Shown here in pieces: positions 12,879 to 55,007 of a stretch of 64,000 nt of DNA (the first letter of the stretch is position 1; each line of letters opens with the position of its first letter). A program made the translations under genes and the position numbers. Under the pieces are notes generated by a model, which saw only the letters and a list, made by a program, of their open reading frames with translations, was not told the DNA's origin and searched no databases. Origin of the DNA: a virus; the IMG/VR virus record IMGVR_UViG_3300030107_004520, positions 4,092 to 68,091 of that record, one strand, 5' to 3'.

Positions 12879-15800
12879 TTAATCGTGGTAAAAACAATAA
12901 CCTGATTTATTTGACGTATCTATTCCACAAGGTCCTCCATCTGATCTAGTACCTTTACATCTAACTTTCTTACCATCTGTTCTTTGAGGCTTACTTTCAT
13001 GTATAGTACACTTGTCGCCAGGCTTAGCTACGGATAATCCGCAACGACCGCCTTTGGATGTAACACCATTACATTTAGGATCGTCCAACTTACCCTCCTC
13101 AAATAGTTTCTTTTCTTCCTCAACTTGGGCGTTTATATCGTCTTGTATAACTTGTTGTTGTTCTTCCTTTTTTATTCTCGCCTTCTCTTTTCTTGCGAAA
13201 GTTTTTTGTTCCTTTATCTCTTGTTTAACCTGTTCTATTTCTTCATTTTTTATACCTAAATTCCACTGGCTCCAACCTAAGAACATAGCTATTCTTTGCC
13301 ATAACTCATGATCACTATTCATAGCCTCTCTAACATTCATAAGCTTACTGTACATCCTCTGTAGTGGTATGTTAGTTGTTGCCTCTACAACACCAAAAAC
13401 AGAACTGTATATTGGATTATCTATATCCCAACCCATTTCTTTTATAACGTCCTCGTTATATTCCCAAGTCTGTGTAGCTCCATATAATTTTCTAGCTTTA
13501 ATACCTATAGGTGGAGATAGGTTCAACATCTCAATTAATGTATGAGCGTGGTCTGGTTGTCTCTTACCTTCTTGTTCCATGAATTCTAATATCATATTTT
13601 TTGCAGTGGAAACAACAGCACCAGCAACTCCCATACCTCTTAACACACCATCAATCATGCTATTGACAATTCTTTCTTTTTTAGAATCAAAGAACTCTTC
13701 GTCTTCTTCATCATCACCACCAAACATTAAACCAAACATAGCTGATTGTAGGCTATAAAATATTAAATTTTGTGCAGCACCATAATACAGTATCTTGGAT
13801 ACGTTTGTTTTAGCATCACCTCTATTGTTAACTAAATCTAATATAGCCTTTTTTGTTAAACGAGCATACTGCATAGGCGTGTTTTGGAATGCTAAAACTA
13901 ATTTACCCAAAGCGGATCTTTGTTGTTGTGACACCCTATCTGGTCTAGCAGACTGCTGTGTTTCTTCTGATACTTCCATAAAATCATTCCAAGCTTTAGC
14001 CTCTGCATCTTTCTGAGTCATACCCTGTTCTAAGTAAGTCTTTATTCTATTTCTATACATAGAAGCCCCACCCATAGATATAGCAAAACTATCCATTATC
14101 TGTGTAATAACAAAACCTTTTTTCAAGAAATAACCGATAGCAGCAACCGCTGGGTTCTTCGCGTCTTTAATAGATTGAGCTAATTCATTAGCATTTACAT
14201 CTTGTTTTAAACCGGTACGTCTTTGTTTTAAGTACGGTGAATTAAATATATTTGCGAAGTCACTCCAGAATTGTTTTTGATTACCAAAAGCTTTAGCTGC
14301 TTTGAATATATTGTTATCACCCCAATTTATAAAGTTAACTGTTGATAGAGTTTGTAACACACCTGATCTTGTGTTAAAGTTCATAACAGCACCAATAGAA
14401 CCATTTATCCAGTTCATGAAGTTATTTACTAATTTATTACTACCGTAAGGTCTACTGGTACCATTCTCCATAGCATACAACATATCTTCTAAGGCCTCTC
14501 TAAAATTATCACCTAATGTCGCTTGAATTTTATTTAAATTAGCAGGGCTAAATATTATATCTTTATTTGCTTTCCATTCTGCTAAAAAGTTTTCTCTTGA
14601 AGCTTGTGAAGAATAATCTAAGTCTGATCTTATATTACCAACCAACCATTCCTGTGTAGGCTCTATAATACCGTCAGCATTGTGATTAACCATAGCTGAT
14701 ACATTCTCAGCGAAGGCTTGTAAATCAGGGTTTTTTTCAACCGCTTTAATCAACGCGGCTTGATCTGTTTTAGACAAACCAAATTCGGTCATATCATAAC
14801 CAGCCTTGTTCCAGTTGTATACTCTAACAGCGTTCTCATGTGAAAATTCTGTACCAGGAACATCTTTTCTAAGAATCTTTCTAACCTTTGGCATCATCTT
14901 TTTCAACGTACTAAAATCATTAGCTAAATTTTGTTTAGCCATGTTTATAGCTCTAATACCTCTAGAGAATGGATCAAATAAATGCTCTTTAAACCACGCG
15001 TGATGTTTATCACCCTGCTTTCCCTTACCAAAGAAACTGTAGCATAGACCAGCAAAATCTTCAGCAGAAGGTGGAATAAAGAATTTAAATCTTTCTACCT
15101 TCGCGCCTCTTACTTTTGCTTTAGCAGCTGTGAAACGTCTCTCTTTACCAACACCAAATACATCTTGCATAATCTGATTAAACTCAGCATCGACGCTTGG
15201 TTTAACCTCAGAAATAATGTTATCTAATTTTTTCGGAGCATCTTTACTAAACTGTAATTTAGCCTGTTGTGATTTACCTTTAATATCAAACTGGTTCAAT
15301 ACATCTTGAACCGAATTAACATTAATTAAAGCATCATCAGCAAAGTATATATCATTGTATCCTTGATCACCAATCATTTCTGCTATCTTTAAAGCCTTAG
15401 CTTCAGGTGTAGAGTTTTCTAATGTTATAACGTTTTCTATTGGTATATTTATACCTTGAGATTTTAAGAAAGCATGTATATGTGGTTGTGCCGCGTGTGG
15501 TCTAGCTGTTAATACAAAATTAGACTTGTCTCCATACTTAGCAACCCTATCTTTAGCTTGATTAAACATAGGTCCTTTCTCTCCTTCAACAACCGTATCA
15601 AACTCTGCAAAATCAAATGTACCTCCTTGAGCCACTATATCAGCACCCTCAGCAGCGAACTCCTCAGCATCTAACCTTCTATTCTCGTAGCTATTAGTAA
15701 AATTGTTTATTCCACCAACAAAATCTTGTGGTAAAGCATCTTCAAGAGCTAAAGAATCTGTGTTTACTAAATTAAAGTTTTGGCCAAATAACTCGCTATA

Positions 15801-18800
15801 AGCTTCTTTGTTAGCCATAACTTTTTTATGATTCTTTCTAACTATATCTTCTCTTAATGATCTCTCTTTACGCTTAGCATTTCTATCAACAGAAACATCT
15901 TCAGATGTCTCAACAAACATCATTGCAACATCGTAACCCTTATCTTTAAATTCTTTAACTTGTTTATTCATTACATTAACAGAAGCACCAGTACCATCAA
16001 TAATAACACCATCACCATTACCTTGATATTTAGCTTTTTTACGTTTAGCTATACGTCTAGATTCTCCTTGTAACTTACCAAGCATACTTAATTGTTCTCT
16101 AGTATAATCTTTCATGCTAGCTGGTAAACCATGGTTTTTCTTTAACCATTCTAACGATATATCAGAATTAACTAATTTATATCCCTGCTTTTGTAAACCT
16201 ACTTTTTTAACTACACTAGATTTACCACTACCAGCACCACCAGCTAAGAATATAACTTTTCTACCAGGTTTAGGCGTACCATCTGTATTAGGTATCTTAG
16301 CTCTAACACCAGATTTAGTTCTAGCTAACGTATCATCAAAATCCCAGAAGCTAGCGCCTTTAGGTTTTGGTGATGGTTTAGATTTAGAAAACTGTAATTT
16401 AGCTTGCTTAAGATTATCGACTACACTTAACTGATCTTCCATAGTCATCTCCGGGGTTACTAAAGGAGATACAGCCCCTGCATTCTTCTTAATCTTATTT
16501 ATATTATCTATGTTATTTACCTTGTTTGTAAGGTGAACAGCGTCTACACTAGATCTTTGTGGCGGTTGGTTGTTTGAAACCTCATTATATGCCGATGCTA
16601 TTAGTTCAGCACGAGCGTTTTTAAGGTCTACATTTTTAGATATCTTTTCTTTATTTTTATTTATAACATTTAGATTATCACCAGCAGCTTCTTTAATTTG
16701 TTTTACTAAAGGCATAAACTCTCCTTTTAATTCTTTTAAAGCTAGTTCAGCTGCTATAACATCATTTAAAGTAGCGCCGTAATCAAATAACACTATGTCG
16801 TTAGCTAATTTAGGATCCACAGCAACAAACCTTATAGCCGGCATCATTCCAAAAGAATAACCTTCTGCATTACCGGTTTTACCGAATAATCCATCTACAA
16901 GTATTCTAAAATCTTCATTTAATGCTGTTTGTGTATAGTATTTTGAAACTTTAGGATATACGGTGTCGAAGTTACCATCTATCATAGATTTAAATAAATT
17001 CGTACTTGTTAACAATAAAGCTAAATCGTGTTCACCATGATGAGATTTTCTTTTCTGCATAGTGCCTCTAATCTGCTGCCTCAACTCTTTTATGCTAATA
17101 CCATTTTCTTTTGCTTTTTGCTTTAGCTTATTTTGAATTTCAGCCTCAAAAACTGCTCTTTCTTTCGCTTTAACCTTAGGATCTTTAGGGTTGTTGATTA
17201 ATCTAGCTGCTTTTTTAGAAAGGTTGTAGTCCTTCATAACTTTCTGACGAGCTTTTTTACCACTAAATTTTGTAACATTCGAAGGCGTCATAGACATAGC
17301 TGTAAAATTAGCAGAACCTTTAAATATACTTGCAGACCTATTAGTAGCATCTTGCAATGTTGATACTACGAATCTTTGTCTTTCTAATGCATCTGCTTTA
17401 TCTACTGTTTTGGTTTTAGCTAGAGCTGCAGTTCCAAAGTAATTTGTTTTTGGAGTGTTCATGTACTCCATTAAAGATCTATACATAAGCTCCTCAGCTT
17501 TTTTAACTTCTACTGGATCTGATTTTTGTTTGTTTCTGATCTCATTAACAGCTCTTATTACTGTTTGAACTCGTTTAGACTCATTTTTTATATAGTCTGG
17601 AGACGTTGGATCGCCGAATTTAATAGATATATTTTGTATTTTTCCTGCAAATTTACTTTGAAAACTAACTTTATCCCATTTGATATTTGTTTTTGGCTCA
17701 ACAAAGTTTTTATCTTTTCTTCTTCTATTCATCTCAGCGAGTGCTAAAGCTTTAACCTCGCCTGATGTAGAAAAGAAATCGCCCCTAGTACCACTTTGAA
17801 ATGTATTATTAAAAAACATTACATTTGTAAGGGCTGCGCTAGGTAGCGTTGTTAAAAACTGTGCGGTATGTCTCTTATATATAGCTCTATCTTTCGGATT
17901 AGTTTTGTCAAGCGGTGTTAATCCTGGGATACCAAGTGTTTTTAGAAAATCATTCCAATTTTTAGAATAAATAACATCACTATTTTGTTTTACATCTGAT
18001 AATTCAATAATAGATTTATACGCGCCTTTTTCAGTTACTTTAATTTGATGCTTTTTTATGACGCTATTTATAAACCCTGCTGCATTACCAAAATCAGCTA
18101 CCTGTAAACCGTGTTTTTGAGCCGCTAGTTCTACAGCTTGTTGTGGATCCAACCTTAAATCTTTAATTTCAAGCATCTCCTGTACAACCAAACCTATATC
18201 AGCTGTACCATTATATCTCACGGCTGCAGCAGGTTGAGAGAAGAAAAGATCGGATTTACCATCACCAATAATATTAATTGTTTCAAGTGGATCAACACCT
18301 TTTTCTATACCAATTTCTCTTAAAGCTTGATTAGCAGCTAACATAGTATTCTGTATAGCTAGGTTTCTTATAGCACCATCTACAGATGTATCATTTGCGT
18401 TAGGTTGTCCTTTAACTATACCGAATAAACTTTGGAAATCTCCTCTATCTATATTCTTTTGTTTATATTGCAAAGCTAGACCTTGAGCTGAACCTGTCTT
18501 AGCAAATTTAGCTTTTGCTCTTTTCTCATATAATAAATCAGGCTTACCTGTTTTTGGATTTACAGCATTTAATAGAGTTGGAGGAACACCAGTAGCTTTA
18601 CCACTAGCGTTATGACCTTCTGGTAAACTAGCTATTTGCGTGTCTGTAGTTTTAAGTATATGATTTTGAGCAGATTTTCTTTGTGCTGTATCTAAATCTT
18701 TCTGTTCAATAATTTTAGAAGATGGTATACCATATAAACTACCAACGACATCTAGAACCTGTCTAAGCGGAGCATTCTTACCTACTACTAATTTTTTAAC

Positions 18801-21800
18801 ACCCTTATATGTTTTAGCGTCTTTAGAATTTACTTTAGATTCTCTAACAACATGCTTAACGGCTTCAGCTGCAAATGCAGAATTAATTTGGCTTTGTAAA
18901 CCATCTACAGTCATATTTTGTAAAGCCTCATTTACTGGAACATTGTTTTCCTTAGCTTTTCTAGCATCTTCAGCTTGACGTCTCTTTAAGTCCTTACCTA
19001 TTTCTGATTTCGTTCTCCTGTATATATCGCTAAACTTAGGATTAATCTTTCTTATTGTAGCTACTTGTGTGTCATTTACGCTTAACGATTTCATTAGATT
19101 TTTAACACCTATATCTGGTTTTTGAACACCAGATAAATCCGCATTATCTAAAATCTGTGTAGCTGCATCTGTTTCAGCTGCAATTTGAGCGGTTATTACT
19201 TCACCAGTTTCTGTAACTCTTTCTATAGGTGTTGTTTTAGGTTCTACCCCGTATTTAACCATTACATCACCTTTAGCGCGATATAAAATAGATTCTGTAA
19301 ATTTACCGCTACCACCAGTTAACCAACCGAACAAACTACCATTAGCCATTGATGGGTCAAAGTTTTTCTCCAATCTATTCTGCAACTCAACTTTTACATC
19401 ACTAACAAACTGAGGCATAGCTTCAGATGGAACACCTTTAGCTGTCACACCCGCTCTAATAAGTCCGTCTAAATGTTTACCATCTAGAGCCGTGTAAGCA
19501 TTCCAAAACGTTTCAGAACTTCTCCACTCAGCTTTACTATTAAACTTTTTACTACCATCTTCGTTTTGTGTAAACGTGTCAAATGTATCTTTTAAATCAG
19601 GATTATTCTCTACAGCTTGATCAACATTTTTAGAGAATGCCATTCTATCAGCTCGGTCAGCATCTTTCTTTTGTAAAGCAGCTTTAGCATCATCAATTAA
19701 TTTTCCTTTAGCGCCACTAACTATCATTCTAGTTAGTGCTTTATTTTGTACGTTGTTCTTTATAGAATGATGATAATCTTTTATAAAGTTTTTAACATCT
19801 TCTTTTGTATCGAATTTAATATCTCTACCTAGGTAATTTTGGGAGAATCGTCTAAATATATCTTTAACTTTAGTAATCGCGTTGTCATTAAATTCTATAT
19901 CATTATCCATCATCATTTCAGAACTTACAGCAAAAGCTTCCTCACCTTGCTGCTCAGCTCTATAACCTTGAACCCTCGCGTTCCATGTGTCTTGATCTTT
20001 AATAGTAACATCATCACTTTCTAAAATTTCCATGAGCGGTCCCGCTAAAGCTAGAGCAGCATTACCATCTTGTTTTAGTGTATTATAAAATGTAGCGTGT
20101 ACAAATTCATGAGCACCTGTATGAAACATACCATCTTCTAAAGAAGTTTCCTTATTAACAAACATGTCATAACTAGTTATCTCACCCGCTTCATTCATAA
20201 CAGGTACCATAACCCCATATCTAGAAGCTTGTCCAGCTATCATATTTGGTATCTCTTGTATTACTCCATCTTGCAATTGATCTAAATACGATTGCGCTTG
20301 AGCTTTTTCTTCTGTTGTAGCGTTTGGATCGGCTAACACCTCTTGCATTCCAACGGCAAGACCTTCTCTATATGTCTGTTCCATAAGATTATCATTAGTG
20401 TTAGCTAAGAACGTTTCAAAATCCTTTGTGTTACCTTCTTGTACATTTATTGACGGTCCACCAGCTTTTCTTACCTCATCAGCTCTATCTCTGATGCTTT
20501 CCATTGTTTGAGCGTACTTCTCTTTTGCTAACTCTACAGAGTGTTTATCTAGAATTTCTTGCTTTTTAGTTAAATTCCTGTTATAAATATCTTCTATCTT
20601 ACTAACCTCAGCTGCTTTTTGCTGATCTGTTAAACCTGTATCGTTATATATTTCTTGAGCCGCCTGCTGTAATTGTCTATTATCAGATTCTATATCTAAT
20701 AAACTTCTTTTTTCAGAATTACTTAAAAGATCTACCCTTTTTATATCGTTTGTTACTAGTTCTGTATTTTGTTGTATTATTTGAGCTAACTCATCTGATA
20801 ATCTATCTTCAACTTCTTTAGATAAGTTTTGATCAGTCATCATGTTCTGAATCTCCTGTATCCTAGCAAAATTAGCGTCCATAGTAGTAGACGTTTCTTG
20901 AGATTTAAATGGAGACATAAGCTGTTTAAACACTGGCATGCTTTTCATAGAGGTACTTATTAAAACACCACTAACAAAAGCTTCTTCTAAATTATCATAA
21001 AGACTAACTGTTTTATCACCACTATAGTAATCTGCCATATTCTCAGCCATTGATGCTAGCATTTCAGAACCACCTTCTTGAAATATATCCACACCACCCG
21101 CCAAAAGAGCTTGTTTGTTAAATACGTTTGTGCGAAGATATTTTGCTAATCCCTGTCTTCCACCAACAGACTTAAGTGCGCCCTTCATTGTTTTCATTTG
21201 ACCTAACGTAACTTTTTCAGACAAAGCCTCAGCTAACCCAACACCACTAGAATATAAAAACATTTCTGCAAAAGATATATCTTTACCGTATAAACCTTTA
21301 GTTTGTTCAAAAAGCTCTTTTTGCTCTTGATAATCAGCAAATTTAGAACCAGCAGAACTAGCGCCCATAACATACAGTGAAGCACCACCAGTTGCGTACA
21401 TTAAGGCTAAGTTAGGTATTTGACCACCTAACATTTGACCAGCCCATTCTGTAAAATCAGAAAAGCTATCTATACTATCATAAGCTATAGGTTGCTCTAC
21501 TAATTCCGCCATGTTTTCTTGCCAACCATCAATAGATTTGTGCATTTTCTGCCTCCAACCTGGTTCTCCTTCTGGTCCTGAACCCATATCATGATACATT
21601 GCAAGTGGAGAAAGTAAGGTAGTTGTTCCGGTTAAAAATGCTTTTAATGTAGGATCTTCTATATTAGCTGAGTCCATTATCCATTTGGATCCTCTATCTA
21701 CAGCCTCACTAATCATAGCTACAGAATACTCCAAACCTTGCAATAAATCAACTAAACCATTTGCTGTAGCAAGCGCAATTCCGGTTCCATCTTGATAATT

Positions 21801-24011
21801 TTTTCCTAACGCTTTAGTTATAACTTTAAGATCTTCCTCTTCTATATCTAAATCCTCTATTATTCCCGCGTTACTTCTTGCTAAGGATAATAATCGATCA
21901 ACACGACCACCATGCTCCCTGTATCCATTTAAATGGTAATTATACTCTTTTACCAAGCTGTCTATTTCTTCTTGAGCGCCTTCTACTTCCCACCCGGAAA
22001 CAAAATCTCTACCTTTTATTTTTTCTATTTCAGCAATTATATCCGTATTTTCTAAGTAGTTAATATGCGTGTTTAGTTGTTTTTTAACGTCATTTATTTC
22101 AACTTCCAAAATATTATGCTTACGCATTGCCATTTCTTTTTCTTCGCTTAACGCATCACCCCGCTCTTTAGCTTGCGCCTCTAACACTTTTTGATATTCT
22201 GATTTTGTAAAAACACCACCATCAAAATCTTCAATAGTATCTTTTAGTCTTTCTTGCATTACAGCCTCTGCCTCATCCTCAGAATGCCTTTTAATAGCCG
22301 CGTCGTAAACATCGTCAAATGTTATTTCTTCCATTAACGCTCTAACACCTTCATGTGCACCTTTTAACTCAAATTCCTTACCCTCTAACTCTCCTTCTCC
22401 AACAAGTTTTTCCTTCAAAAGGTCACCAAGTTGGCCAATTGGACTTTCGCTAAGTAATTTTTGGGTAGAATCTAAACCTACCACTTCCCAAGTTCCCTCA
22501 ATTTCTCCAATTAACAATTTACTAAGCTGTAAATACTCAGTTGTATTCGCTTTTTGCCAAGCTTCATCGTTTAAATCTATATTGTTTTCCTTTATATATC
22601 TCTTAGCCGCTAGTATTCTTTTTTCTTTTTGTATTGCTTCTCTAACACCTTTATCAATTTTTGGATCTGACCTTTTATAAGTCGCTTTACCAGCAGCTGC
22701 CAAAGGCTGGTCTTCCAAGCTAGATTTAATAACACCCTGTTTTAATACTCTAATCTCAGTAGTAATTTCTTTTAATCTTTTTTCCTTAGCTTCTTTTCCA
22801 CCCTCCCAATCATAATCTACACGGCCATCTTTAATTGCTTTTAACTCTTTCTCTAATTCAAAAAGTCGTTCTATATCTTCTCTTGAATTGTCAATTGCGT
22901 TTGTACTATTTGTTTTAATTTGCTCAAGATCGTCCTTAGAAGGCGTTACACTCTTTGCTATGGTTGTAATCTCACCTTGTACTTTACCCTTTTTATAAGC
23001 TTCAACGTCAATAGCGTGCTCTTGTAAAAATGCGTTTATATGATCTGCTGCTTTTTGATTGTTTGCTTTACCCCAACGATCAACCCTTACACCTTCCTTA
23101 CCATCTTCGTCATCATAAATTCTCTTGCCATCCCAAGATTCTATATATAATCTATCTCCAGCAGATTTACCTTCTGAAGATGTTTGTGAAAATGTAAATC
23201 CATATTTATTATACATTTCACCAAAATCTGTAACAGACTTAGACTCATCTTTCCACGTGCTTCCATATCCACCTTGCTCAGCTGTAACTTTTGGTAGATC
23301 TTTTCCATCTACTCTAACACTTTTCTTCAACTCTTCGTCCTCCTGTTCTTTCCTAACACTTTCCATAACAGCGGTTTGCTCTGTAAAGTAATCTAAGTAT
23401 TCTTGATCTTTAGTATCTATATCCGCTACATCAATACCCTTTTGTTTAGCGTAATTTTCTCTTACCTGCTCAGCTTCCAATTGTTCTTGTTGGAAAGTTT
23501 GTTCACCATGTTCAACCCAATACCCGACTCTTTGATTACTTATCTCCTCTGATAAAGCTAAACCTCTATTATAATCTTCCTCAGATAAAGAACCCTGTAT
23601 ACCGGGCTCATATAAACTATCCCATTGCTCTTTAGTATATTGTCCTCCCTTATCATCAAAAGTGAATGTATCATCTTTTAAAGAAACTTTTATTTTTCTA
23701 TCACCTTTAAAATTAGGTCCGTGATATGCGAACGCGGGTCTCTCTTTCTTAACCTCCTGCTCTTGTCGCTGCTCTTGTATTGCGTTTTGTACTTCTTGTT
23801 GTGTTGTTGTGGGTTTTGGTGTGCCTAAAACATTATTTTTCCATGTATCGAGGTCATTATCTATATAACCATTACCTACAAGCCATTTATGTATATTAGC
23901 TTGTTTTGCAGGATCAGCAGTCATATTAGCTTTCCACGTAGTGTAATCGTTGTCGATTGCACCCATGTTAGATAATGTTCTATGTATATTTTGTAATTTT
24001 TCCTCGTTCAT
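12879..24011 (-). CDS. 3710-aa giant internal-virion/ejection (polyvalent) protein
   Basis: Position after tail and internal virion genes; HEFVH zincin motif; P-loop GGAGSGKS; HAD DFDDT; two C-terminal C3H Zn-finger-like repeats. Confidence 0.7.
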   Translation of the reverse strand: MNEEKLQNIHRTLSNMGAIDNDYTTWKANMTADPAKQANIHKWLVGNGYIDNDLDTWKNNVLGTPKPTTTQQEVQNAIQEQRQEQEVKKERPAFAYHGPNFKGDRKIKVSLKDDTFTFDDKGGQYTKEQWDSLYEPGIQGSLSEEDYNRGLALSEEISNQRVGYWVEHGEQTFQQEQLEAEQVRENYAKQKGIDVADIDTKDQEYLDYFTEQTAVMESVRKEQEDEELKKSVRVDGKDLPKVTAEQGGYGSTWKDESKSVTDFGEMYNKYGFTFSQTSSEGKSAGDRLYIESWDGKRIYDDEDGKEGVRVDRWGKANNQKAADHINAFLQEHAIDVEAYKKGKVQGEITTIAKSVTPSKDDLEQIKTNSTNAIDNSREDIERLFELEKELKAIKDGRVDYDWEGGKEAKEKRLKEITTEIRVLKQGVIKSSLEDQPLAAAGKATYKRSDPKIDKGVREAIQKEKRILAAKRYIKENNIDLNDEAWQKANTTEYLQLSKLLIGEIEGTWEVVGLDSTQKLLSESPIGQLGDLLKEKLVGEGELEGKEFELKGAHEGVRALMEEITFDDVYDAAIKRHSEDEAEAVMQERLKDTIEDFDGGVFTKSEYQKVLEAQAKERGDALSEEKEMAMRKHNILEVEINDVKKQLNTHINYLENTDIIAEIEKIKGRDFVSGWEVEGAQEEIDSLVKEYNYHLNGYREHGGRVDRLLSLARSNAGIIEDLDIEEEDLKVITKALGKNYQDGTGIALATANGLVDLLQGLEYSVAMISEAVDRGSKWIMDSANIEDPTLKAFLTGTTTLLSPLAMYHDMGSGPEGEPGWRQKMHKSIDGWQENMAELVEQPIAYDSIDSFSDFTEWAGQMLGGQIPNLALMYATGGASLYVMGASSAGSKFADYQEQKELFEQTKGLYGKDISFAEMFLYSSGVGLAEALSEKVTLGQMKTMKGALKSVGGRQGLAKYLRTNVFNKQALLAGGVDIFQEGGSEMLASMAENMADYYSGDKTVSLYDNLEEAFVSGVLISTSMKSMPVFKQLMSPFKSQETSTTMDANFARIQEIQNMMTDQNLSKEVEDRLSDELAQIIQQNTELVTNDIKRVDLLSNSEKRSLLDIESDNRQLQQAAQEIYNDTGLTDQQKAAEVSKIEDIYNRNLTKKQEILDKHSVELAKEKYAQTMESIRDRADEVRKAGGPSINVQEGNTKDFETFLANTNDNLMEQTYREGLAVGMQEVLADPNATTEEKAQAQSYLDQLQDGVIQEIPNMIAGQASRYGVMVPVMNEAGEITSYDMFVNKETSLEDGMFHTGAHEFVHATFYNTLKQDGNAALALAGPLMEILESDDVTIKDQDTWNARVQGYRAEQQGEEAFAVSSEMMMDNDIEFNDNAITKVKDIFRRFSQNYLGRDIKFDTKEDVKNFIKDYHHSIKNNVQNKALTRMIVSGAKGKLIDDAKAALQKKDADRADRMAFSKNVDQAVENNPDLKDTFDTFTQNEDGSKKFNSKAEWRSSETFWNAYTALDGKHLDGLIRAGVTAKGVPSEAMPQFVSDVKVELQNRLEKNFDPSMANGSLFGWLTGGSGKFTESILYRAKGDVMVKYGVEPKTTPIERVTETGEVITAQIAAETDAATQILDNADLSGVQKPDIGVKNLMKSLSVNDTQVATIRKINPKFSDIYRRTKSEIGKDLKRRQAEDARKAKENNVPVNEALQNMTVDGLQSQINSAFAAEAVKHVVRESKVNSKDAKTYKGVKKLVVGKNAPLRQVLDVVGSLYGIPSSKIIEQKDLDTAQRKSAQNHILKTTDTQIASLPEGHNASGKATGVPPTLLNAVNPKTGKPDLLYEKRAKAKFAKTGSAQGLALQYKQKNIDRGDFQSLFGIVKGQPNANDTSVDGAIRNLAIQNTMLAANQALREIGIEKGVDPLETINIIGDGKSDLFFSQPAAAVRYNGTADIGLVVQEMLEIKDLRLDPQQAVELAAQKHGLQVADFGNAAGFINSVIKKHQIKVTEKGAYKSIIELSDVKQNSDVIYSKNWNDFLKTLGIPGLTPLDKTNPKDRAIYKRHTAQFLTTLPSAALTNVMFFNNTFQSGTRGDFFSTSGEVKALALAEMNRRRKDKNFVEPKTNIKWDKVSFQSKFAGKIQNISIKFGDPTSPDYIKNESKRVQTVIRAVNEIRNKQKSDPVEVKKAEELMYRSLMEYMNTPKTNYFGTAALAKTKTVDKADALERQRFVVSTLQDATNRSASIFKGSANFTAMSMTPSNVTKFSGKKARQKVMKDYNLSKKAARLINNPKDPKVKAKERAVFEAEIQNKLKQKAKENGISIKELRQQIRGTMQKRKSHHGEHDLALLLTSTNLFKSMIDGNFDTVYPKVSKYYTQTALNEDFRILVDGLFGKTGNAEGYSFGMMPAIRFVAVDPKLANDIVLFDYGATLNDVIAAELALKELKGEFMPLVKQIKEAAGDNLNVINKNKEKISKNVDLKNARAELIASAYNEVSNNQPPQRSSVDAVHLTNKVNNIDNINKIKKNAGAVSPLVTPEMTMEDQLSVVDNLKQAKLQFSKSKPSPKPKGASFWDFDDTLARTKSGVRAKIPNTDGTPKPGRKVIFLAGGAGSGKSSVVKKVGLQKQGYKLVNSDISLEWLKKNHGLPASMKDYTREQLSMLGKLQGESRRIAKRKKAKYQGNGDGVIIDGTGASVNVMNKQVKEFKDKGYDVAMMFVETSEDVSVDRNAKRKERSLREDIVRKNHKKVMANKEAYSELFGQNFNLVNTDSLALEDALPQDFVGGINNFTNSYENRRLDAEEFAAEGADIVAQGGTFDFAEFDTVVEGEKGPMFNQAKDRVAKYGDKSNFVLTARPHAAQPHIHAFLKSQGINIPIENVITLENSTPEAKALKIAEMIGDQGYNDIYFADDALINVNSVQDVLNQFDIKGKSQQAKLQFSKDAPKKLDNIISEVKPSVDAEFNQIMQDVFGVGKERRFTAAKAKVRGAKVERFKFFIPPSAEDFAGLCYSFFGKGKQGDKHHAWFKEHLFDPFSRGIRAINMAKQNLANDFSTLKKMMPKVRKILRKDVPGTEFSHENAVRVYNWNKAGYDMTEFGLSKTDQAALIKAVEKNPDLQAFAENVSAMVNHNADGIIEPTQEWLVGNIRSDLDYSSQASRENFLAEWKANKDIIFSPANLNKIQATLGDNFREALEDMLYAMENGTSRPYGSNKLVNNFMNWINGSIGAVMNFNTRSGVLQTLSTVNFINWGDNNIFKAAKAFGNQKQFWSDFANIFNSPYLKQRRTGLKQDVNANELAQSIKDAKNPAVAAIGYFLKKGFVITQIMDSFAISMGGASMYRNRIKTYLEQGMTQKDAEAKAWNDFMEVSEETQQSARPDRVSQQQRSALGKLVLAFQNTPMQYARLTKKAILDLVNNRGDAKTNVSKILYYGAAQNLIFYSLQSAMFGLMFGGDDEEDEEFFDSKKERIVNSMIDGVLRGMGVAGAVVSTAKNMILEFMEQEGKRQPDHAHTLIEMLNLSPPIGIKARKLYGATQTWEYNEDVIKEMGWDIDNPIYSSVFGVVEATTNIPLQRMYSKLMNVREAMNSDHELWQRIAMFLGWSQWNLGIKNEEIEQVKQEIKEQKTFARKEKARIKKEEQQQVIQDDINAQVEEEKKLFEEGKLDDPKCNGVTSKGGRCGLSVAKPGDKCTIHESKPQRTDGKKVRCKGTRSDGGPCGIDTSNKSGYCFYHD

Positions 24012-26787: not shown

Positions 26788-29700
26788 TTAAGAGTTATTT
26801 ATAAAATTATCTATATATATGTGAGCAGCTGTAGCTGTCTCGCTATTACCAAGTCCGCCTACGTGTAATAATCCTTGAACCTTAGTGTTAGATCCACTCA
26901 TGACTGCTGATATATCTATAACCTTTATACCACTATGATTTGAATAGAAGCTTAGAGATTCATTATCAGCTATAGTGTTTGTTTTACTCAATACTAGAGT
27001 TGTAGCATTAGTAACACTGCTAACAGTAGTATCGCTAGCAACACCAGTTCCAGTAACAGTCATACCAGCAACAGCACCATCTGTATCATCTAAAACAACA
27101 GTTGCACTCTCAGTAACAACACCATTAGTTTGAAGTAGTCTATTATCAAAACCACCAACATCTGAAGCAGTTGGTTGTCTACCAACACCGCTAGATATAC
27201 TTAACGTTCTACCTTCAGTAGGTGTTACTGTAAAATCGAACGCTATAATAGCCGATGTGTTTCTTTCAAATGTAAGTGTTGTTCCATTAGCAACACTACA
27301 AGCTGTAGATATTGTAACTGTTCTTTTTCTTACACTACTAACAGTAACTCCATATGTTATGCCAGTACCTAACACATACATTCCAGGTTGGATTTTTGGG
27401 TTTTCTTTAGTTAACGTTATTGTCGTACCAGAGCTACCACCGTTACCACCTGTTTCAACAAAATTAACTCTCCTAAGACCACCAAACGTTTTCTCGCCAT
27501 ATTCTATAGGAGCTTTTATCGTTACCGCTGAAGGCATTGCACCAAAATTGCTAGTATGATTGTGTGTTTTTGGTTGTAATGTTACAGTATTAATACCATA
27601 CTGCGTTATACTAGCATCTTCAAAGTTAGTTGGCACCCCACTCGCTAGTGTAACTCCACTTCCTGCAGATAAAACTATATCATATCTTACTTTAGCTGTC
27701 GTTGTACCAGGTATAAGTATATGGTGAGTTGTGAGACCACTACTTCCAACAGTTGTTGTTAAATTTTGAGAATTTCCAGCTGAAGTTATATTCGCTAAAG
27801 TCTCAAACTCATTCTCTGTAAAATCATAGTACTTAGCAATAGTATTTTTTACTGGATCGCTATGCTGCGTTATTCTTATAGTATATTCACTACCACTAGC
27901 GCCTCTAACAGTAACAGGTACTTCTTGCGCTATATGTGATATTTCTGCTGGATAACTAACTCTAGTTATTTTGTTTGTAAACGTCTCGTTTTGTCTAAGT
28001 ACAAATTGGAATTGAGCTATATGGTTTAATTCACATAAACTTGGTGGATCTGGACTTAACCCATTTGTCTGTCCTGGTGTATAATATATCTTGTAAACAA
28101 GCTTTGTTGTACCAGCCGTTGAAGTTGTGGGTGTTATTGTATAATTATATTGGGAAGAGTAATCGACACCTCCATTCGTTAAATTATTAAAAGATAATCC
28201 CCAACCTTCATATTTATAACCACTACTAGCTGTAAATGATATTTCAGCAATTTTAGTAGAAACATTGTCGGTTACTGTTCCTGAATGTAAGTTTTTAGTT
28301 GTACCACTAGAAACACCATTGTCTACTACAGAGTTACCTAAACCAGTTGGAGCACTTGTTATAGATACCGTATGACCAGTTGAATAATAAGGATAATAGG
28401 TTCTTAAACAAGCATCTCTTCTAGGTATAATAGGAGCACTCTCCTCATCTATATCTATATAATAAGAAGTATTCGAAGTTGGACATGTAAACGAACCAAC
28501 GGCTACTCTAGCCCTAACTGTATTTGCTGGATCACCAGCTATACCTAAATCAGTAAACGTTACGCCGGTAATAGGAGAATCTACGTTACCACCGTTCCAT
28601 ACGCCACTACCACTACTAGTTTCTGAAGCTCCACCAATTTGAAAATCAGCAGCTGTTAAAACATATCCAGACCAAATACCATTAATAATAGGTGTTATTA
28701 CTAAGTCAACATTTTGACCACTAACAGTAGCACCTACAGTTTGTGTTTGAGTTACGTCTGCAACTGTCCATTTTAATCCTTCTGCAGAAACCACAGAAGA
28801 ACTATCCCAAGCGCCACCACTTCCATCAATACCAACATAACTAGAACTTGTGTTATTAGCAAATGTTAATGTTACAGCGGTTGTATCTGGATCAGTACCA
28901 CTACCACCGCCAACAAAAGAAAACGAGGCGTTACCTAATCCTTGAACAGTAAATTCTCTTTCATCTAAATTACTTAACTCTGTTGTTTCTCCAGAAGTAA
29001 CACCAAACCATTTACCTTCTTTTTCTTTAAACTCTATAACTCTACCTGTTTGTTTGTCTGTTATCATTTTACCAGCAGGTATATACCAACCAGTTTTAGC
29101 TGATAAATTAAAATATTCATTGTGTGCTGCGGCTGTAGAAGATATAGAGTTACCAGCAGCATCTGCTATAGATGTTGTAGATGGATTATAAATTCTAGCT
29201 TGCGTACCTTCATAATTAACAGTGTTAAAACTTTTAACAGCTTCCGGTGTATCGTTAAATAATATTGTTATATCCGACTCGTAAGCCGCACCATAAAAAC
29301 TATTTCTATTTACAGTTGAATCATGGTGTTTCCATAACTGTCCTTGGTAAAATGTATAATAATCGTTATTTAAACTAAGACCATTTTCTGGAGTAAATGA
29401 TTTAAAACTAGACCAACCTTTTGCTCTTTCACTGTAACTAACAGTAGTGTACGTAGCTTGCTTTTGTCCATTTGAATATTTTTTACCAAAAGTTAAGTTA
29501 TACTCATGTTTCTTTTCATCGTAAGTTCCTAACGCGCTCCATACGTAACTTTTTAGTTCATCTGCAAAATAATCTTTCATACCAAGATCTGATATTGATC
29601 TTACACCTTCTCCAGATAAAGCTAACACTTGACCTCTAATTATATCTGCAAAATAAATTTGTTGAGGTGTTGCTACAAAAGATTCTGGATTCTTGGATAT

Positions 29701-32700
29701 ACCCCAATCACCAGAGTAAGCAGACGCTGATCCCAATACTTTATTCGATGTACTAACATTTGATGAGCCGTCAGCATTATATAAAGCATCTCTATTCGTT
29801 AGTATTTTTATCACCTTATCCTCACAAAAAGCTAATATTTGTGTTGGTCTTGTGTATAGTTTTTGTATACTACCGTATATAGGATTTAAATCTTTTGTTA
29901 TAGCTTCTGCTGCTATAAATTGATTTGTTTCGTTTACACCATTAATAGAATTATATATACCAGAATATATTAAACCATGTTCTCTTCTCTCTTCTTTTAT
30001 TGGCTCAGCTAATACGGTAGAAGCTTTAACACCATTATCTACTTGTTTAGCGTTATAATCATCTCTTATTCTATCTGACTCTACACCATTACCAAAAGTC
30101 CAGCAGTTACTCCAATCTAATATGTGATATTGTCTATATAATTTTTGATCTTCACTTACTGTTGTTGGTCCACCGTGTAGTTTTAACGTGGTACCAGTTG
30201 CAGAAACAGCACCATTAGCTTTTGCTCCTAAAGAATAATGTACGCCAAATTGTTCTCTTTTATTAAAATACACGTCTGCACCATCTGCTATAGAAGCACC
30301 TGTAACTAATGCTGGTGAAAACGTAAGAGTTTGATCACTCCAAGAATCAACGGTGTGTTTGGTACCTGAAATACTAAAATTAGAACCTAAAGGTAGCAAT
30401 TCTTCGTTTGTAGCTGAATTTAACTCTAAAGGTATTAATCCGCTAGCTTGATAATAAATATCCATATCAACGCTTTCTTTTGGCTCTGTCTCCCAAATAG
30501 CTGGATCTTCTGAAAAATTATCTCTACCACCATTGTCTGTAAATTTTGATAAAATTTCTATTACATCAGTGCTACTAGTATCGTGTTTTAAAGGTGCGGT
30601 ACTATCTGGCGCACCATTTATAGTACCTGTTACGGGGTTGTAGAAGTTAGGCCCTTTACTACCAATAGGTGGATCTACCTCTATTGTCCATTTTTGTCTC
30701 ATACACGCTCCTTCATATAGTAACCTATTATAGCGCCACCCCTCGTCTTTATAATTTCTTATACCAAAATGTCCAGTTAAACGGCTTATGGCTAAAAAAT
30801 GACCTCCTGAACCAAAAGGATGTGTTGTGTAATTACTATATGTAGGATAATTATATTCACTAACCGTATAAACTGTCTCATCTGGATCGTTTCTAAATCT
30901 GAATTTTGTACCTTCTTGAGTAAGTCTTTCTATAAACGTAGCGGCTTTTACAAATATACCGTCTTCTAAACCAGCTTGATTATTTGCACAATCTTGAAGT
31001 GTGTGGTCAAAAGGCCTATCGCTCCAATTACCACCATCATAACCTTTACCCATACCTGTCCAAGATATATCTATTTTTCTACCACCGTCCCATATTCCTC
31101 TAGAAAGAGGACCTGCACCCGAAATAGCATTACCAAAAAGACCGGCATGCCCAAATCTATCTGGAGCACCTGGCCCTTCATTTTGAGCATCTACATTTGT
31201 ACCACCAAAAATATTATGGGTTCCAGTACCTTGATTTTTATCTCCTGGAATCATATCCGTGTGACCAGTCCATTGGTACGCACTACAAGCATCAATAAAG
31301 AATTGCCGTTTTCCACCCAGTTTTTCCCAAAACTGTCTAGCGTCTGTAGATCCGCTACTTAACCAACTATCGTTATTTAATGCTTCACAACTATCATCAG
31401 CCATATCAGAATTTTCTACACCAAAACGACTACCACTAGTTCCACCACCCCACTCATAAGCTGATCCAGTAAAATGACTATATTTAGTTGGGTGATCGCT
31501 ACCATCTCTGTCTGTCTTCTGCTTCGCGTTCATTCCTATAACACCTCCCTGTACGTGCTTATAAGCATTGTTATTTAAATATCTTAACTTCCAAGTATGT
31601 GAAACAAAATAATCCTCTATACCACCACCACCAGTTTCTACAACACGTTTGTTTAATACACTATCTCTATATATTTTTACAAAAAATCTACCATCAAATT
31701 CAGGTTTGTTTTCAACTTCATCTTCAATTAATTCTAATTGTAAACCGGTGATAGCTGTAGCGTAGGTACCACCCGTTGATGTAAATTCCATCTCTTCTCC
31801 AAATTTACCTTTTATTTTTATTTTGTATGGCGTTGAGCTGTCACCACTAATTTTTACAACTTCATAAATCTCAGATCTATCATTAGGTCCCCATATCCTC
31901 ATACTCAATCTATCAGGTGTTTGTATAGGTAAATTGCTACCAAAAGTGCTCTCAAACGTGGTAGCTTCTACTTCTATTTCAACCTCATCCGGCATTGGAA
32001 AACCACTTACACCATTACCTATTTGTGTGTTACTTGTATTTGGCATTAAACCCAAACTTTTCTTTTCTGTTTTTATAAAGTCTGGAGCTTCATCTTCAAT
32101 AGCTAATATCTTATATCTTGCTCTCTCTTTCACCGCTGAACCTGAACCATGCTCTTTCTTAAGTATTAAAAATGTTTCTTCATCTAATTTGTTTCTTTCA
32201 GAAGAAGGAAAGGATAACCATATATTACCGTCAGCAGCGTGGTACCATCTATCCATAGCTAGAGTATAATACTCTGTAGATGTTTCTTTTACATACCAAG
32301 AAAAATACTTAGCCCAGTCAGGAACATTTGTTCCTTGATCTAATCTTACATTTAACCTGTTTCTAGTTAACGCAGCTTCTTTTGGTATATCTATAGAAGC
32401 GTCTTTACTAGTCAACACTGGTGTTTCTCTACCATACCCATCACTATATACTACACCAACTTGGTAAGTTCTCATAGATTTAAGAGATGCAACCTGTGTT
32501 ACTTCGCCTAATTCAGAGTTACTACCTAAATTCTTTATTTCCTGTGAATGCAATAATACTTTTATTTTCGGGTCTTCTAGTGCTGTATAGTTTTGTAAGT
32601 AGTTACCGTATATTAATCTATTAGCGCTAATTTCTTGTGCTTTAGCTGTTCTAGGAACATTATCCCATGGTCTTAATAATTGATTAGAAGGAACTACAGC

Positions 32701-34461
32701 GTGTACTAATTCTGATTTTATTTCATATTCACCTCTAGCGTAAGCATTTGTATAATTTAAGTCAGGCCAAATTGGGTGACCATCTGTAGGTTTTATAGTT
32801 TTAACAGTATATACTGTTGGATCATTTGTTTCTTTATACAACAGATCTATCTCTACAACATCTCTAGGTAAAGCATCTAATTCAGGGTGATACCCTTTTA
32901 ACTTTAAATTCCTTAATTGGTTTCTCATACCTAGATTATAACCCTTTTTAGGTTTGTATTCGTAATCACCTGGTATAAAAGCTATTTGGGACCAAGGTGC
33001 GAAAGTAGAATATTCACCATCTTGGTATTTATATCTATAAGAAAATCTAACAAATTTAAACTCAAAAAGAGGTTCTCCATCTTCTAATCTAACAAACCAA
33101 TCCTCATCAGAGTCTGGTAAATCAGAATCAATAGATAGTACTCTAACATCAAAAGATGTTGAAAATAAGTTATCTGGATCTGTAACTGGCGAAGACTCAA
33201 CAACTGTTCGCACTTCATAATTATCAAAAGTGTCTGAGCCTTGTGCATCTGAATTGTTTGTCCATAACAATATATCACCTTGTCTAAAATCAATAGCTGT
33301 ATCAAACGTTATACCGGTTATAAGATCACCGGATTGATAAGCAACGTTATTGCTATAAAATCTACCATTGAATGAAGTGTTTTTTGGGTTAGAAAGCCCG
33401 TCCGCAACCCGTATACGTGGGTCCTTTGAAATAGACATGTCTAGTTCTAATGGCTGCGTAGGTGATTTTTTAATTACGGTTATATGTTCTTCTTCAACGT
33501 ACTGTGCTCTATCTTCTGTTCTATTAGTAACCACTTGTCTAAGACCATTACTGTCTACATCTGCCACTAATCTAGTATGGAAATAATTTGTATCACCATA
33601 AAATAGTTGCGTTGGATCTGGTGTTCCAGCGGCATAACCAGCCACACCACCACCAGCTAAATACGCAACACCACCAGTTCCTTCTATAGATCTTTTTATA
33701 TTTATTTTTTTCGGCTCTGTATAACCGTCTGTCCAGAATAATAAATCATCAATAACATTTATCGCTGTAATATGTGAAGATGCTTTAGCTTTAAAATTTA
33801 AAACCCTATCCGCTAAAAACTCTACTGTATCATTATTAGATACTGTTAGGTTTTCAGATGTGTATATTCTCCAAGTATCAGGCGAGGTGGACGTGTCAAC
33901 CCTAATATCAGTTACAGTTATATTATCTGCTCTGGTGTAAGTAGTACCACCTAAAGTACCTGTTACATACATACCGATTCTTATACCTGTTTTATTTATT
34001 GTGGAACTACCATTTTGCAGAACAGCAAAATAGGGGCTGCTAGATAGTGCGCCCTGTACGGTTGTTTTAACATAATATATGTCTACAAAAACATATTTAA
34101 GTATTTCTTGTATAGCGTTATATTCTAATATATAATCTCTACGTATATCGAGCCCTTGACCCGTAGTGTTATTTATACCAGCAGATACAAAGTAATATAT
34201 TTTATCAGTATCTGGAACAGCAATTGAACCTACGCAAGTAGATGTTGTCGGAACATCATAATTAGCATTACTTGAAAAACTCGTATCCATCGTGTTTTTT
34301 TGTACATTACCGTATAATGTTTGTAACGAACCAACGTTAGAATCATCCGAGGTAGATATCTGTACATTTTTTGCATCTCTATACTGCCCAGCTGGAACAA
34401 GTCTTTCGTCCATGTCCTTGTTCATTTTTGCCTGGGAGAAATTACGTTTAAACTCTGGCAT
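26788..34461 (-). CDS. Large tail (tubular/stabilization, nozzle-like) protein with fibre-like C-terminal extension
   Basis: N-terminal KMNKDMDERLVP.GQYRDA.N; NGVESDRIRDDY and GISKNPESF motifs of Bacteroidota podovirus tail proteins; T/S/G-rich C-terminus. Confidence 0.7.
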   Translation of the reverse strand: MPEFKRNFSQAKMNKDMDERLVPAGQYRDAKNVQISTSDDSNVGSLQTLYGNVQKNTMDTSFSSNANYDVPTTSTCVGSIAVPDTDKIYYFVSAGINNTTGQGLDIRRDYILEYNAIQEILKYVFVDIYYVKTTVQGALSSSPYFAVLQNGSSTINKTGIRIGMYVTGTLGGTTYTRADNITVTDIRVDTSTSPDTWRIYTSENLTVSNNDTVEFLADRVLNFKAKASSHITAINVIDDLLFWTDGYTEPKKINIKRSIEGTGGVAYLAGGGVAGYAAGTPDPTQLFYGDTNYFHTRLVADVDSNGLRQVVTNRTEDRAQYVEEEHITVIKKSPTQPLELDMSISKDPRIRVADGLSNPKNTSFNGRFYSNNVAYQSGDLITGITFDTAIDFRQGDILLWTNNSDAQGSDTFDNYEVRTVVESSPVTDPDNLFSTSFDVRVLSIDSDLPDSDEDWFVRLEDGEPLFEFKFVRFSYRYKYQDGEYSTFAPWSQIAFIPGDYEYKPKKGYNLGMRNQLRNLKLKGYHPELDALPRDVVEIDLLYKETNDPTVYTVKTIKPTDGHPIWPDLNYTNAYARGEYEIKSELVHAVVPSNQLLRPWDNVPRTAKAQEISANRLIYGNYLQNYTALEDPKIKVLLHSQEIKNLGSNSELGEVTQVASLKSMRTYQVGVVYSDGYGRETPVLTSKDASIDIPKEAALTRNRLNVRLDQGTNVPDWAKYFSWYVKETSTEYYTLAMDRWYHAADGNIWLSFPSSERNKLDEETFLILKKEHGSGSAVKERARYKILAIEDEAPDFIKTEKKSLGLMPNTSNTQIGNGVSGFPMPDEVEIEVEATTFESTFGSNLPIQTPDRLSMRIWGPNDRSEIYEVVKISGDSSTPYKIKIKGKFGEEMEFTSTGGTYATAITGLQLELIEDEVENKPEFDGRFFVKIYRDSVLNKRVVETGGGGIEDYFVSHTWKLRYLNNNAYKHVQGGVIGMNAKQKTDRDGSDHPTKYSHFTGSAYEWGGGTSGSRFGVENSDMADDSCEALNNDSWLSSGSTDARQFWEKLGGKRQFFIDACSAYQWTGHTDMIPGDKNQGTGTHNIFGGTNVDAQNEGPGAPDRFGHAGLFGNAISGAGPLSRGIWDGGRKIDISWTGMGKGYDGGNWSDRPFDHTLQDCANNQAGLEDGIFVKAATFIERLTQEGTKFRFRNDPDETVYTVSEYNYPTYSNYTTHPFGSGGHFLAISRLTGHFGIRNYKDEGWRYNRLLYEGACMRQKWTIEVDPPIGSKGPNFYNPVTGTINGAPDSTAPLKHDTSSTDVIEILSKFTDNGGRDNFSEDPAIWETEPKESVDMDIYYQASGLIPLELNSATNEELLPLGSNFSISGTKHTVDSWSDQTLTFSPALVTGASIADGADVYFNKREQFGVHYSLGAKANGAVSATGTTLKLHGGPTTVSEDQKLYRQYHILDWSNCWTFGNGVESDRIRDDYNAKQVDNGVKASTVLAEPIKEERREHGLIYSGIYNSINGVNETNQFIAAEAITKDLNPIYGSIQKLYTRPTQILAFCEDKVIKILTNRDALYNADGSSNVSTSNKVLGSASAYSGDWGISKNPESFVATPQQIYFADIIRGQVLALSGEGVRSISDLGMKDYFADELKSYVWSALGTYDEKKHEYNLTFGKKYSNGQKQATYTTVSYSERAKGWSSFKSFTPENGLSLNNDYYTFYQGQLWKHHDSTVNRNSFYGAAYESDITILFNDTPEAVKSFNTVNYEGTQARIYNPSTTSIADAAGNSISSTAAAHNEYFNLSAKTGWYIPAGKMITDKQTGRVIEFKEKEGKWFGVTSGETTELSNLDEREFTVQGLGNASFSFVGGGSGTDPDTTAVTLTFANNTSSSYVGIDGSGGAWDSSSVVSAEGLKWTVADVTQTQTVGATVSGQNVDLVITPIINGIWSGYVLTAADFQIGGASETSSGSGVWNGGNVDSPITGVTFTDLGIAGDPANTVRARVAVGSFTCPTSNTSYYIDIDEESAPIIPRRDACLRTYYPYYSTGHTVSITSAPTGLGNSVVDNGVSSGTTKNLHSGTVTDNVSTKIAEISFTASSGYKYEGWGLSFNNLTNGGVDYSSQYNYTITPTTSTAGTTKLVYKIYYTPGQTNGLSPDPPSLCELNHIAQFQFVLRQNETFTNKITRVSYPAEISHIAQEVPVTVRGASGSEYTIRITQHSDPVKNTIAKYYDFTENEFETLANITSAGNSQNLTTTVGSSGLTTHHILIPGTTTAKVRYDIVLSAGSGVTLASGVPTNFEDASITQYGINTVTLQPKTHNHTSNFGAMPSAVTIKAPIEYGEKTFGGLRRVNFVETGGNGGSSGTTITLTKENPKIQPGMYVLGTGITYGVTVSSVRKRTVTISTACSVANGTTLTFERNTSAIIAFDFTVTPTEGRTLSISSGVGRQPTASDVGGFDNRLLQTNGVVTESATVVLDDTDGAVAGMTVTGTGVASDTTVSSVTNATTLVLSKTNTIADNESLSFYSNHSGIKVIDISAVMSGSNTKVQGLLHVGGLGNSETATAAHIYIDNFINNS

Positions 34462-53900: not shown

Positions 53901-53951
53901 ATCCTTTTTCAACACTTTCTTATTACGAATCATTTCAGATAATATATATGT

Positions 53952-54047
53952 ATGAAAACAATAATAGAAATATATAAAATCGGAATTTGTCTCCTCTTCT
54001 CACCAATTATAATTACATTCTTAATGGTGAATGAATTGATAGACTAG
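53952..54047 (+). CDS. 31-aa membrane peptide
   Basis: MKTIIEIYKIGICLLFSPIIITFLMVNELID*, directly after promoter copy 1. Confidence 0.45.
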   Translation: MKTIIEIYKIGICLLFSPIIITFLMVNELID

Positions 54048-54056
54048 TCGTCAGTG

Positions 54057-54139
54057 GGTTGTATAAGGTCTACCTCTACTATGTAGTTGACAACCGTAGA
54101 CGAGATGTAGTGTGACCAGATTGGTATGCATCTCCAACC
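54057..54139 (+). ncRNA. Structured RNA, copy 1 (three-way junction)
   Basis: GGTTG/CAACC, GTCTAC/GTAGAC, CTAC/GTAG, GAGATGTA/TGCATCTC, ACCA/TGGT; covaries with copy 2. Confidence 0.75.
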
Positions 54140-54368
54140 TCAATATGCTGACTAAATACGAACTATAATAGATAATATAAATAACTAATAATAATAATTA
54201 AATAATTAAATATGAAAAATAAATTAACTGGAAGATATATCCAACATTATTATGACGCAGCAGTAGCTGGCATAATAACAATAGATGAATTCTTCGAATT
54301 GTCAATGATTCTACCTACTAGAAATCTATATAAAAGAAATTCGCAGATTCTGAATATATTATAAAACA

Positions 54369-54413
54369 GTGACAATAGCCTGTTACTAATACCTCTTAAT
54401 AGGCTTATGTCAC
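54369..54413. promoter_or_regulatory. Imperfect inverted repeat GTGACAATAGCCT...AGGCTTATGTCAC (operator/origin-like)
   Basis: Related copy at 61289-61332 and half-site at 53706-53724. Confidence 0.65.
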
Positions 54414-54745
54414 AGTGTGGTCTGACTTTGAAATAGCGTTGAAAGATTATACTCCAACCTACGTCATACTTTCTGTGTCATAATGTCATGTCAAGATGTC
54501 ACATTATTAATCACAGGGTAAATACGACTCAATTTAGATAATATAAATGTAAACAAACTAAAATGAATAATAAATATAAATTGAATATGACAAATTGTCA
54601 GTGACAAAGAGTCATGGTGGTATACCAGTAGTATAAAAATATCAAATAAATAAATTACATACTTTTATACGAACTAAATACGAGATAAAATAGATAATAG
54701 AATAAAGATAAATAAATAAATTAATAATTAAATAAAAAAAAAATT

Positions 54746-55004: not shown

Positions 55005-55007
55005 CGT

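Follow-up and report, generated by a model that had tools for sequence, protein, structure and literature searches.

Phages are known to begin early transcription by two routes, using either the host holoenzyme or an injected, complete RNA polymerase (RNAP), as in N4-like and crAss-like phages. σ factors bind RNAP in part through their region 2 (σ2) domains, which dock on the β′ clamp helices. The late σ of phage T4, gp55, is a σ2-only factor: it is made in the course of infection as a small free protein, and it needs gp33 and the sliding clamp. Here we describe a 64,000-nucleotide (nt) stretch of virus DNA (positions 4,092 to 68,091 of IMG/VR record IMGVR_UViG_3300030107_004520; hereafter the window), in which a giant open reading frame (ORF) encodes a protein of 3710 amino acids (aa). 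We propose, tentatively, that residues ~1469-1590 of this protein are a divergent σ2 domain that is delivered in a cargo protein, docks on host RNAP, and helps to start early transcription.

The virion RNAPs of crAss-like and N4-like phages are described as being packaged in the particle and then ejected, whereupon they start early transcription. For crAss001, genes after the muzzle gene are reported to code for cargo proteins and for three RNAP-associated proteins that were detected in virions (PMC10172136); the phi14:2 preprint places a DFDxD virion protein in all crAss-like phages, and N4-type RNAPs are described as fused to zincin peptidase domains (PMC5512222). Zincin-mediated self-processing and "jump-starting transcription" are proposed themes of the polyvalent proteins as treated by Iyer et al. 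(2017; PMC5512222). Like the virion RNAPs in published accounts of phi14:2 (gp66), crAss001 (gp47/49/50), and N4-like phages, the giant protein of the window is encoded after tail/muzzle genes; like the polyvalent proteins of Iyer et al., it is very large and multidomain, has an HEXXH motif and a P-loop kinase with a HAD-like DFDDT, and is presumably delivered with the DNA. Unlike virion RNAPs, it would supply not a polymerase but a domain that gives the host enzyme specificity or docks on it, and unlike T4 gp55, its σ2-like part is embedded in a giant protein, presumably packaged, so that its action would come at the very start of infection. The main text of PMC5512222 has 0 occurrences of the word "sigma", and no σ2-like domain is among the domains described there; texts returned by a full-text literature search describe virion polymerases of N4 and crass phages as well as free phage σs, and no σ-like domain in an ejected protein.

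The giant ORF, its parts, and the neighboring tail gene lie in the window as follows:

26788..34461, minus strand: 2557-aa crass-type muzzle-like tail protein (PF25731 crAss_MUZ, 4.8e-15; phrog_14478, 1.4e-119)
12879..24011, minus strand: giant ORF, 3710 aa (ORF list and translation)
20097..20111, minus strand: HEFVH (aa 1301-1305), HEXXH motif upstream of the module, attributed to a presumed zincin peptidase (motif by sequence)
18234..19643, minus strand: conserved 470-aa module, aa 1457-1926, from MAFSK to FFSQ (sequence comparison of relatives)
19242..19607, minus strand: N block of the module, predicted σ region 2-like helical domain, aa ~1469-1590, model residues 13-133
19263..19409, minus strand: motif FVSDVKVELQNRLEKNFDPSMANGSLFGWLTGGSGKFTESILYRAKGDV, aa 1535-1583, site of the best hhalign local match to σ profiles
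19314..19337, minus strand: SLFGWLTG, aa 1559-1566, the most conserved stretch of the module (44 sequences)
19290..19316, minus strand: Gly-rich loop of sequence GGSGKFTES (GVSGGAGxS as family consensus), at DSSP loop 110-118, where model confidence is lower
18918..19241, minus strand: variable linker, partly disordered, plus a lineage-specific long helical hairpin in the present phage
18234..18917, minus strand: C block of the module, aa 1699-1926, conserved domain without a recognizable fold match

The initial annotation had picked out a peptide at 19260-19480 by its loose resemblance to σ70 regions 2.2-2.4, placing it between a zincin domain and the next FFSQ linker. Its text and coordinates are right: the peptide is encoded on the minus strand (stops occur throughout the plus strand of 19260-19480), with FVSDVKVELQ running from residue 1535 of the giant ORF (window 19409) and ILYRAKGDV forming residues 1575-1583 (to window 19263). 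The placement also holds, since the landmarks HEFVH, MAFSK, and FFSQ begin at residues 1301, 1457, and 1923, and the peptide falls in a distinct, conserved module that lies between the HEFVH region and FFSQ.

Comparison of relatives divides this module into three parts: an N block of ~140 aa, which includes the peptide, a variable linker, and a C block of ~210 aa. The blocks are separable: several relatives match the C block only, and several viral loci match the N block only. The linker of the present phage carries a lineage-specific insert of ~70 aa, which none of the other 25 sequences in the 26-sequence module alignment (A1) has. Conservation of the N block was read from a second alignment (A2) of 44 sequences, 43 of them from viral contigs and one from the window. 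In SLFGWLTG, residues S103, L104, F105, G106, W107, L108, and G110 (module numbering) are invariant (44/44 sequences), and at least 90% of the sequences keep T; outside it, L58-D59 (of LDGLI), F79, V83-K84, R90, N101, and G125-D126 (of YRAKGD) are invariant or nearly so. We considered whether the Gly-rich loop might be a Walker A motif and rejected this, because its spacing is not G-x4-GK[ST] and its Lys is not conserved.

Among 20 full-length relatives, conserved [FYW]S[KQR] words occur at both ends of the module and at two further borders (residues 2541 and 2921); such borders fit candidate processing sites or conserved linkers. In the giant protein of the window these words, at aa 1459, 1924, 2541, and 2921 (window ~19635, 18240, 16389, and 15249), mark module borders, and one border word, AKLQFSK, occurs twice.

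The evidence for a σ2 fold comes from the predicted structure. We modeled the whole module with AlphaFold2 from the 26-sequence alignment, and the N block was modeled and searched as part of the module only. The mean predicted local distance difference test score (pLDDT) of the module was 77.9; per 10-residue block it was ~79-96 over model residues 1-110 and 121-130, dropped to 65 at 111-120, where the Gly-rich loop lies, and fell below 50 at residues 134-180 of the linker. The N block of the model has the helical fold of σ2 (regions 1.2/2.1, 2.2, and 2.3-2.4). When the model was searched against 48,161 representative PDB chains with VIA-align, 50 matches were listed. Those covering residues 13-153 number 14, and 14/14 are σ region 2 domains or chains of transcription initiation complexes: they include SigW, σE region 2, AlgU, SigB, σ28, RpoS, pro-σK, and SigH, and near-complete coverage of target domains is seen (83/89 and 78/78). 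Also matched were 7d7d_F, from a complex of T4 gp45-dependent activation and late transcription, whose chain F we take to be T4 gp55 (the entry title does not name it), and 9n9q_C, from an entry titled as an RNA-guided transcription complex, again without the identity of the chain. The other 36 of the 50 matched only the long helical linker (residue 172 onward) in a generic, helical way; generic helical matches are likewise all that model residues 173-272 drew. The σ2 helical bundle that the initial annotation had suggested is thus supported by the predicted model, where the N block is confidently helical and its neighbors among the matches listed all belong to σ2 domains or initiation complexes. 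We consider it likely that the N block has a real σ2-type fold, most probably as a very divergent homologue.

Foldseek gave no match at E ≤ 0.001 in the PDB for the whole module or the C block; its highest-probability PDB row for the module was σE (0.28, not significant), and in a viral library its top probability, a true module homologue aside, was a phage "putative sigma factor" (0.35). A complex prediction that paired the N block (A2) with Flavobacterium johnsoniae RpoC (residues 200-380), run without a control, scored 0.01 against a mark of 0.32 and weighs neither way. Compared with known σ2 domains, the N block has a Gly-rich 8-residue loop within what would be the region 2.3/2.4 helix, extra N-terminal helices, and no recognizable σ4; this last lack places it closest in kind to σ2-only factors such as T4 gp55. 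In contrast to free-standing σs, it is embedded at residue ~1500 of a 3710-aa protein.

The position of the giant ORF resembles that of genes for ejected proteins. The muzzle ORF lies upstream in the same operon direction, and the muzzle domain (PF25731) in this 2557-aa ORF argues that the phage has a crass-type tail tip. Downstream of this gene and inside the structural gene block, the giant ORF occupies the place of crassvirus genes for cargo proteins or virion RNAP. It contains no DFDxD and only one D.D.D word, DNDLD at aa 51; DFDxD was not found either in window ORFs of at least 150 aa or in ORFs of at least 70 aa in the first 4.7 kb of the genome, and the giant protein has no RNAP family match. 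We therefore rejected, for now, the idea that it is a divergent crass-type or N4-type RNAP. The contrast with crAss-like virion RNAPs drawn in the initial annotation is apt in that the phage is crass-related, yet lacks the DFDxD polymerase motif. Because of its crass cargo position, the absence of DFDxD, and a kinase as its sole recognized enzyme, the giant protein looks like a polyvalent cargo protein, and we presume it to be virion cargo that is ejected.

The kinase in question is a P-loop module of the AAA_33/Zeta_toxin type (AAA_33, 1.2e-12; Zeta_toxin, 1.4e-11; PHROG "polynucleotide kinase"), flanked by HAD-type motifs, at residues ~2553-2900 (window 15312-16355, minus strand). It seems to be inserted between the HAD-type motifs, with DFDDT before it and TARP and FADDA after it; this arrangement resembles a kinase-phosphatase end-healing module and suggests a possible counter-defense cargo. 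The last ~70 aa of the giant protein (window 12879-13100, minus strand) hold two similar Cys-rich repeats, each C-x9-C ... C-x2-H, which resemble small zinc-binding knuckles, and a membrane-like hydrophobic stretch lies ~400 aa upstream of them.

A word-indexed search found 101 relatives of the giant protein (2106-4186 aa), all metagenomic and none with a functional name, and a phmmer search of 1.84 billion representative proteins gave 171 matches at E ≤ 0.001. Viral contigs gave no match when scanned with a single protein and 51 loci when scanned with an alignment. No tblastn match to the module or to the C-terminal 810 aa was found in 50,697 phage records, the conserved peptides of the module were not found in 185,579 species genomes (thus, no prophage copies by that route), and the ESM Atlas gave no usable match.

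As for the host, the terminase is 44.6% identical to that of the Flavobacterium "elemo" podoviruses and also matches those of Cellulophaga, Tenacibaculum, and Maribacter phages. A 1001-aa protein (window 7629-10634, minus strand) combines a MAM domain at its N terminus with a type IX secretion sorting domain (Por_Secre_tail) at its C terminus; the latter is a Bacteroidota-specific export signal, here found on a phage protein of the structural region. From the terminase matches and the sorting domain we conclude that the host belongs to the Bacteroidota and is probably a flavobacterium. The phage, at ~68 kb, also carries GroEL and GroES genes.

Two further features, far from the giant ORF, bear on what such a domain might do:

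53924..59903, plus strand: 9 exact copies of the promoter-like element TACGA-N8-AGATAAT, preceding small plus-strand genes
62733..63491, plus strand: free-standing σ70-family gene, 252 aa, regions 2 and 4 (phrog_351, 1.6e-22)

The initial annotation had named TACGA-N8-AGATAAT as the promoters that a delivered σ-like module might serve. The motif itself is real and clustered, as its 9 exact copies show, all of them before genes of the early region; at ≤2 mismatches it has 24 matches, compared with 11.7 ± 3.5 in shuffles. The full element is longer (~35 nt, cAAAcTAAATACGAA-N7-tAGATAATATAAAT) and lies 10-40 nt before the start codons of small genes. Five related complete genomes share it, with a second box that begins with A or G; at ≤1 mismatch they hold 7-12 copies each (6-11 on the dominant strand), versus 0-5 for a control pattern. 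The modules of these five relatives are only ~31-44% identical to the present one (best-segment values). The primary σ of Bacteroidota has the consensus TTTG / TAnnTTTG, which TACGA-N8-AGATAAT does not resemble.

The free-standing σ is readily recognized (Sigma70_r2, 26.4 bits; r4, 21.4 bits), and a six-frame search of the 68,091-bp genome with Sigma70_r2 (PF04542) gave this gene (62733-63491) as its single match. Each of the five relatives has exactly one free-standing σ gene (~253 aa), located on the motif strand within or downstream of the motif cluster. Because of this location, the promoters appear to drive the phage's own σ gene, and they are therefore presumably read by something that is there when infection begins, be it a factor delivered by the phage or the holoenzyme of the host.

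The free-standing σ is matched by more than 8000 database proteins (E ≤ 0.001), and the 120 listed matches are at least 67% identical to it, all but one at least 73%. Contigs with close relatives of this gene are binned in metagenome-assembled genomes (MAGs) of Woesearchaeota, Clostridium, Aliivibrio, Flavobacteriaceae, and others; labels this diverse look like those of mis-binned phage contigs. In the intergenic gaps of the minus strand, a loose TTATTAAC-like word is the only sign of a second (late) promoter motif. It precedes several minus-strand (late) genes (45778-45806, 48531-48562, 49031-49106, and 51236-51279), and such words may be promoters of another class, which the phage's own σ would read.

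To the computed sequence, conservation, predicted fold with its σ-only structural neighbors among the matches listed, genomic context, and promoter motif, our proposal adds packaging, cleavage, RNAP binding, and promoter specificity as steps that we infer. In our reading, this marine flavobacterial phage is a crass-related podovirus without a virion RNAP, and it probably injects the giant protein together with its DNA. The protein would be packaged in the virion, ejected ahead of or with the genome, and perhaps cleaved at its [FYW]S[KQR] borders, either by the HEXXH peptidase that it carries or by the prohead protease. The σ2-like domain would then dock onto the β′ clamp helices of host RNAP, bring the host core enzyme to the entering genome, and start transcription from the TACGA-N8-rGATAAT early promoters; the same promoters would drive the free-standing σ, which would subsequently serve later genes. 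A stronger version holds that a virion-delivered, σ2-only specificity module for TACGA-N8-rGATAAT promoters has replaced the virion RNAP: the module, probably cleaved at FS|K sites after ejection, would arm host core RNAP for early promoters used across the family. We regard this version as unlikely.

Several results weigh against a role as a σ factor. By sequence, likeness of the N block to σ is absent or marginal at best. Pfam has no match on the module or the motif region, 0/44 N-block sequences match σ families at E ≤ 10, and profiles of the module and the N block found no solved σ factor among 177,635 PDB sequences. With hhalign, the N block (A2) compared with 30 σ ORFs from three Bacteroidota MAGs reached a probability of 1.8% (score, 19.2; P = 0.028; 18 columns), versus 94.7% for the phage's own σ as a positive control and 0.3% for the C block; compared with the family of the phage's own σ, the N block reached only 0.15%. 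Approximately 3 of 150 column shuffles attained the observed score (null mean, 12.2; standard deviation, 2.3; maximum, 19.9). The N block thus differs from the region 2 domains of the σ70 family, especially those of extracytoplasmic function (ECF) σs (SigC, SigR, CnrH, σE, SigW, and SigH), in giving no clear signal with hidden Markov models (HMMs) or other profiles. The 150 matches listed out of the 171 from phmmer comprise giant proteins and short fragments, without a named ordinary σ among them.

The fold and its setting add further objections. The helix that would read the −10 element (regions 2.3/2.4) is broken by the conserved 8-residue Gly-rich loop, and the C block shows no likeness to σ4 or σ3 among the structure matches listed. 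The ground for packaging is synteny alone, and the phage already has an ordinary σ gene. GATAAT is close to the classical −10 box of primary σs, and the phi14:2 preprint describes classical-looking middle promoters that are read by host or Escherichia coli holoenzyme; for these two reasons, the host primary σ could serve the early promoters and is a serious candidate for their reader.

What sequence likeness there is falls in the expected place. The top local match in hhalign falls on the motif singled out in the initial annotation (R..l.NyD..kN.SLFGWLTG against k...F...f..Wi.r of σ); it lies at the junction of regions 2.2 and 2.3, the same equivalence that had been proposed there. A greedy extension of this low-confidence alignment retains the order of the σ helices, aligns the invariant F105 and W107 with the F..W of σ region 2.3, and faces the Gly-rich loop with a gap, so that the loop appears as an 8-residue insertion in the σ 2.3/2.4 helix. 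By sequence, the proposed resemblance to σ70 regions 2.2-2.4 is marginal: the best hhalign match falls on that stretch, which HMM and profile searches do not recognize as σ.

Could the N block be a helical bundle that resembles σ2 by convergence, or through a prior of the structure predictor, and that serves ejection without any link to RNAP, as a scaffold, a channel, or a chaperone-like part of the cargo protein? We think this rather unlikely, since the neighbors listed for the N block among the 48,161 chains are all σ2 domains or initiation-complex chains, with no unrelated helical bundle among them, and since the target domains were covered almost completely; moreover, other helical parts of the giant protein draw generic matches or none, and the lone hhalign match lies at the corresponding position of the structure. 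An account that keeps the RNAP link makes the domain a competitor or a tether at the σ2 docking site of host RNAP and not a specificity factor: it might displace the host σ and so shut off the host, or it might keep RNAP at the ejection channel, where transcription would help to draw the genome in, with the promoters being read by the host primary σ or the phage's own σ. Several observations would suit this: the likeness extends to the σ2 fold only, without a recognizable σ4; the phage has a complete σ of its own; the −10-like GATAAT could suit a primary σ; and ejected proteins that modify RNAP are on record, such as T4 Alt (as mentioned in PMC5512222). We nevertheless judge it improbable, because the strict conservation of SLFGWLTG and the loop, where σs touch the opened −10 strand, would suggest contact with DNA and not docking only.

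That same conservation can be turned toward an account in which the domain retains only single-strand DNA binding and works without RNAP, holding or protecting a genome end or a melted region while the DNA is packaged or ejected. Its best-conserved residues do map to the part that binds nontemplate DNA in σ factors, and the giant protein is presumably stored beside the DNA; however, the helices that would face β′ are conserved as well (L58, D59, I62, F79, K84, and R90). To our knowledge, no σ2 fold is known to hold DNA independently of RNAP, which we also count against this account, and we consider it very unlikely.

If a divergent σ2 domain does act as we tentatively propose, what is new here is the σ2 fold in a new setting, while the theme of injected transcription starters is already known. 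An injected σ-like domain would constitute a third route into early transcription, in which the phage brings the specificity part and borrows the host enzyme, and σ2 domains could hide in giant cargo proteins, out of reach of HMMs. If the module has indeed taken the place of the virion RNAP, it would be the first σ-like factor injected with a genome. The family is abundant in marine metagenomes.

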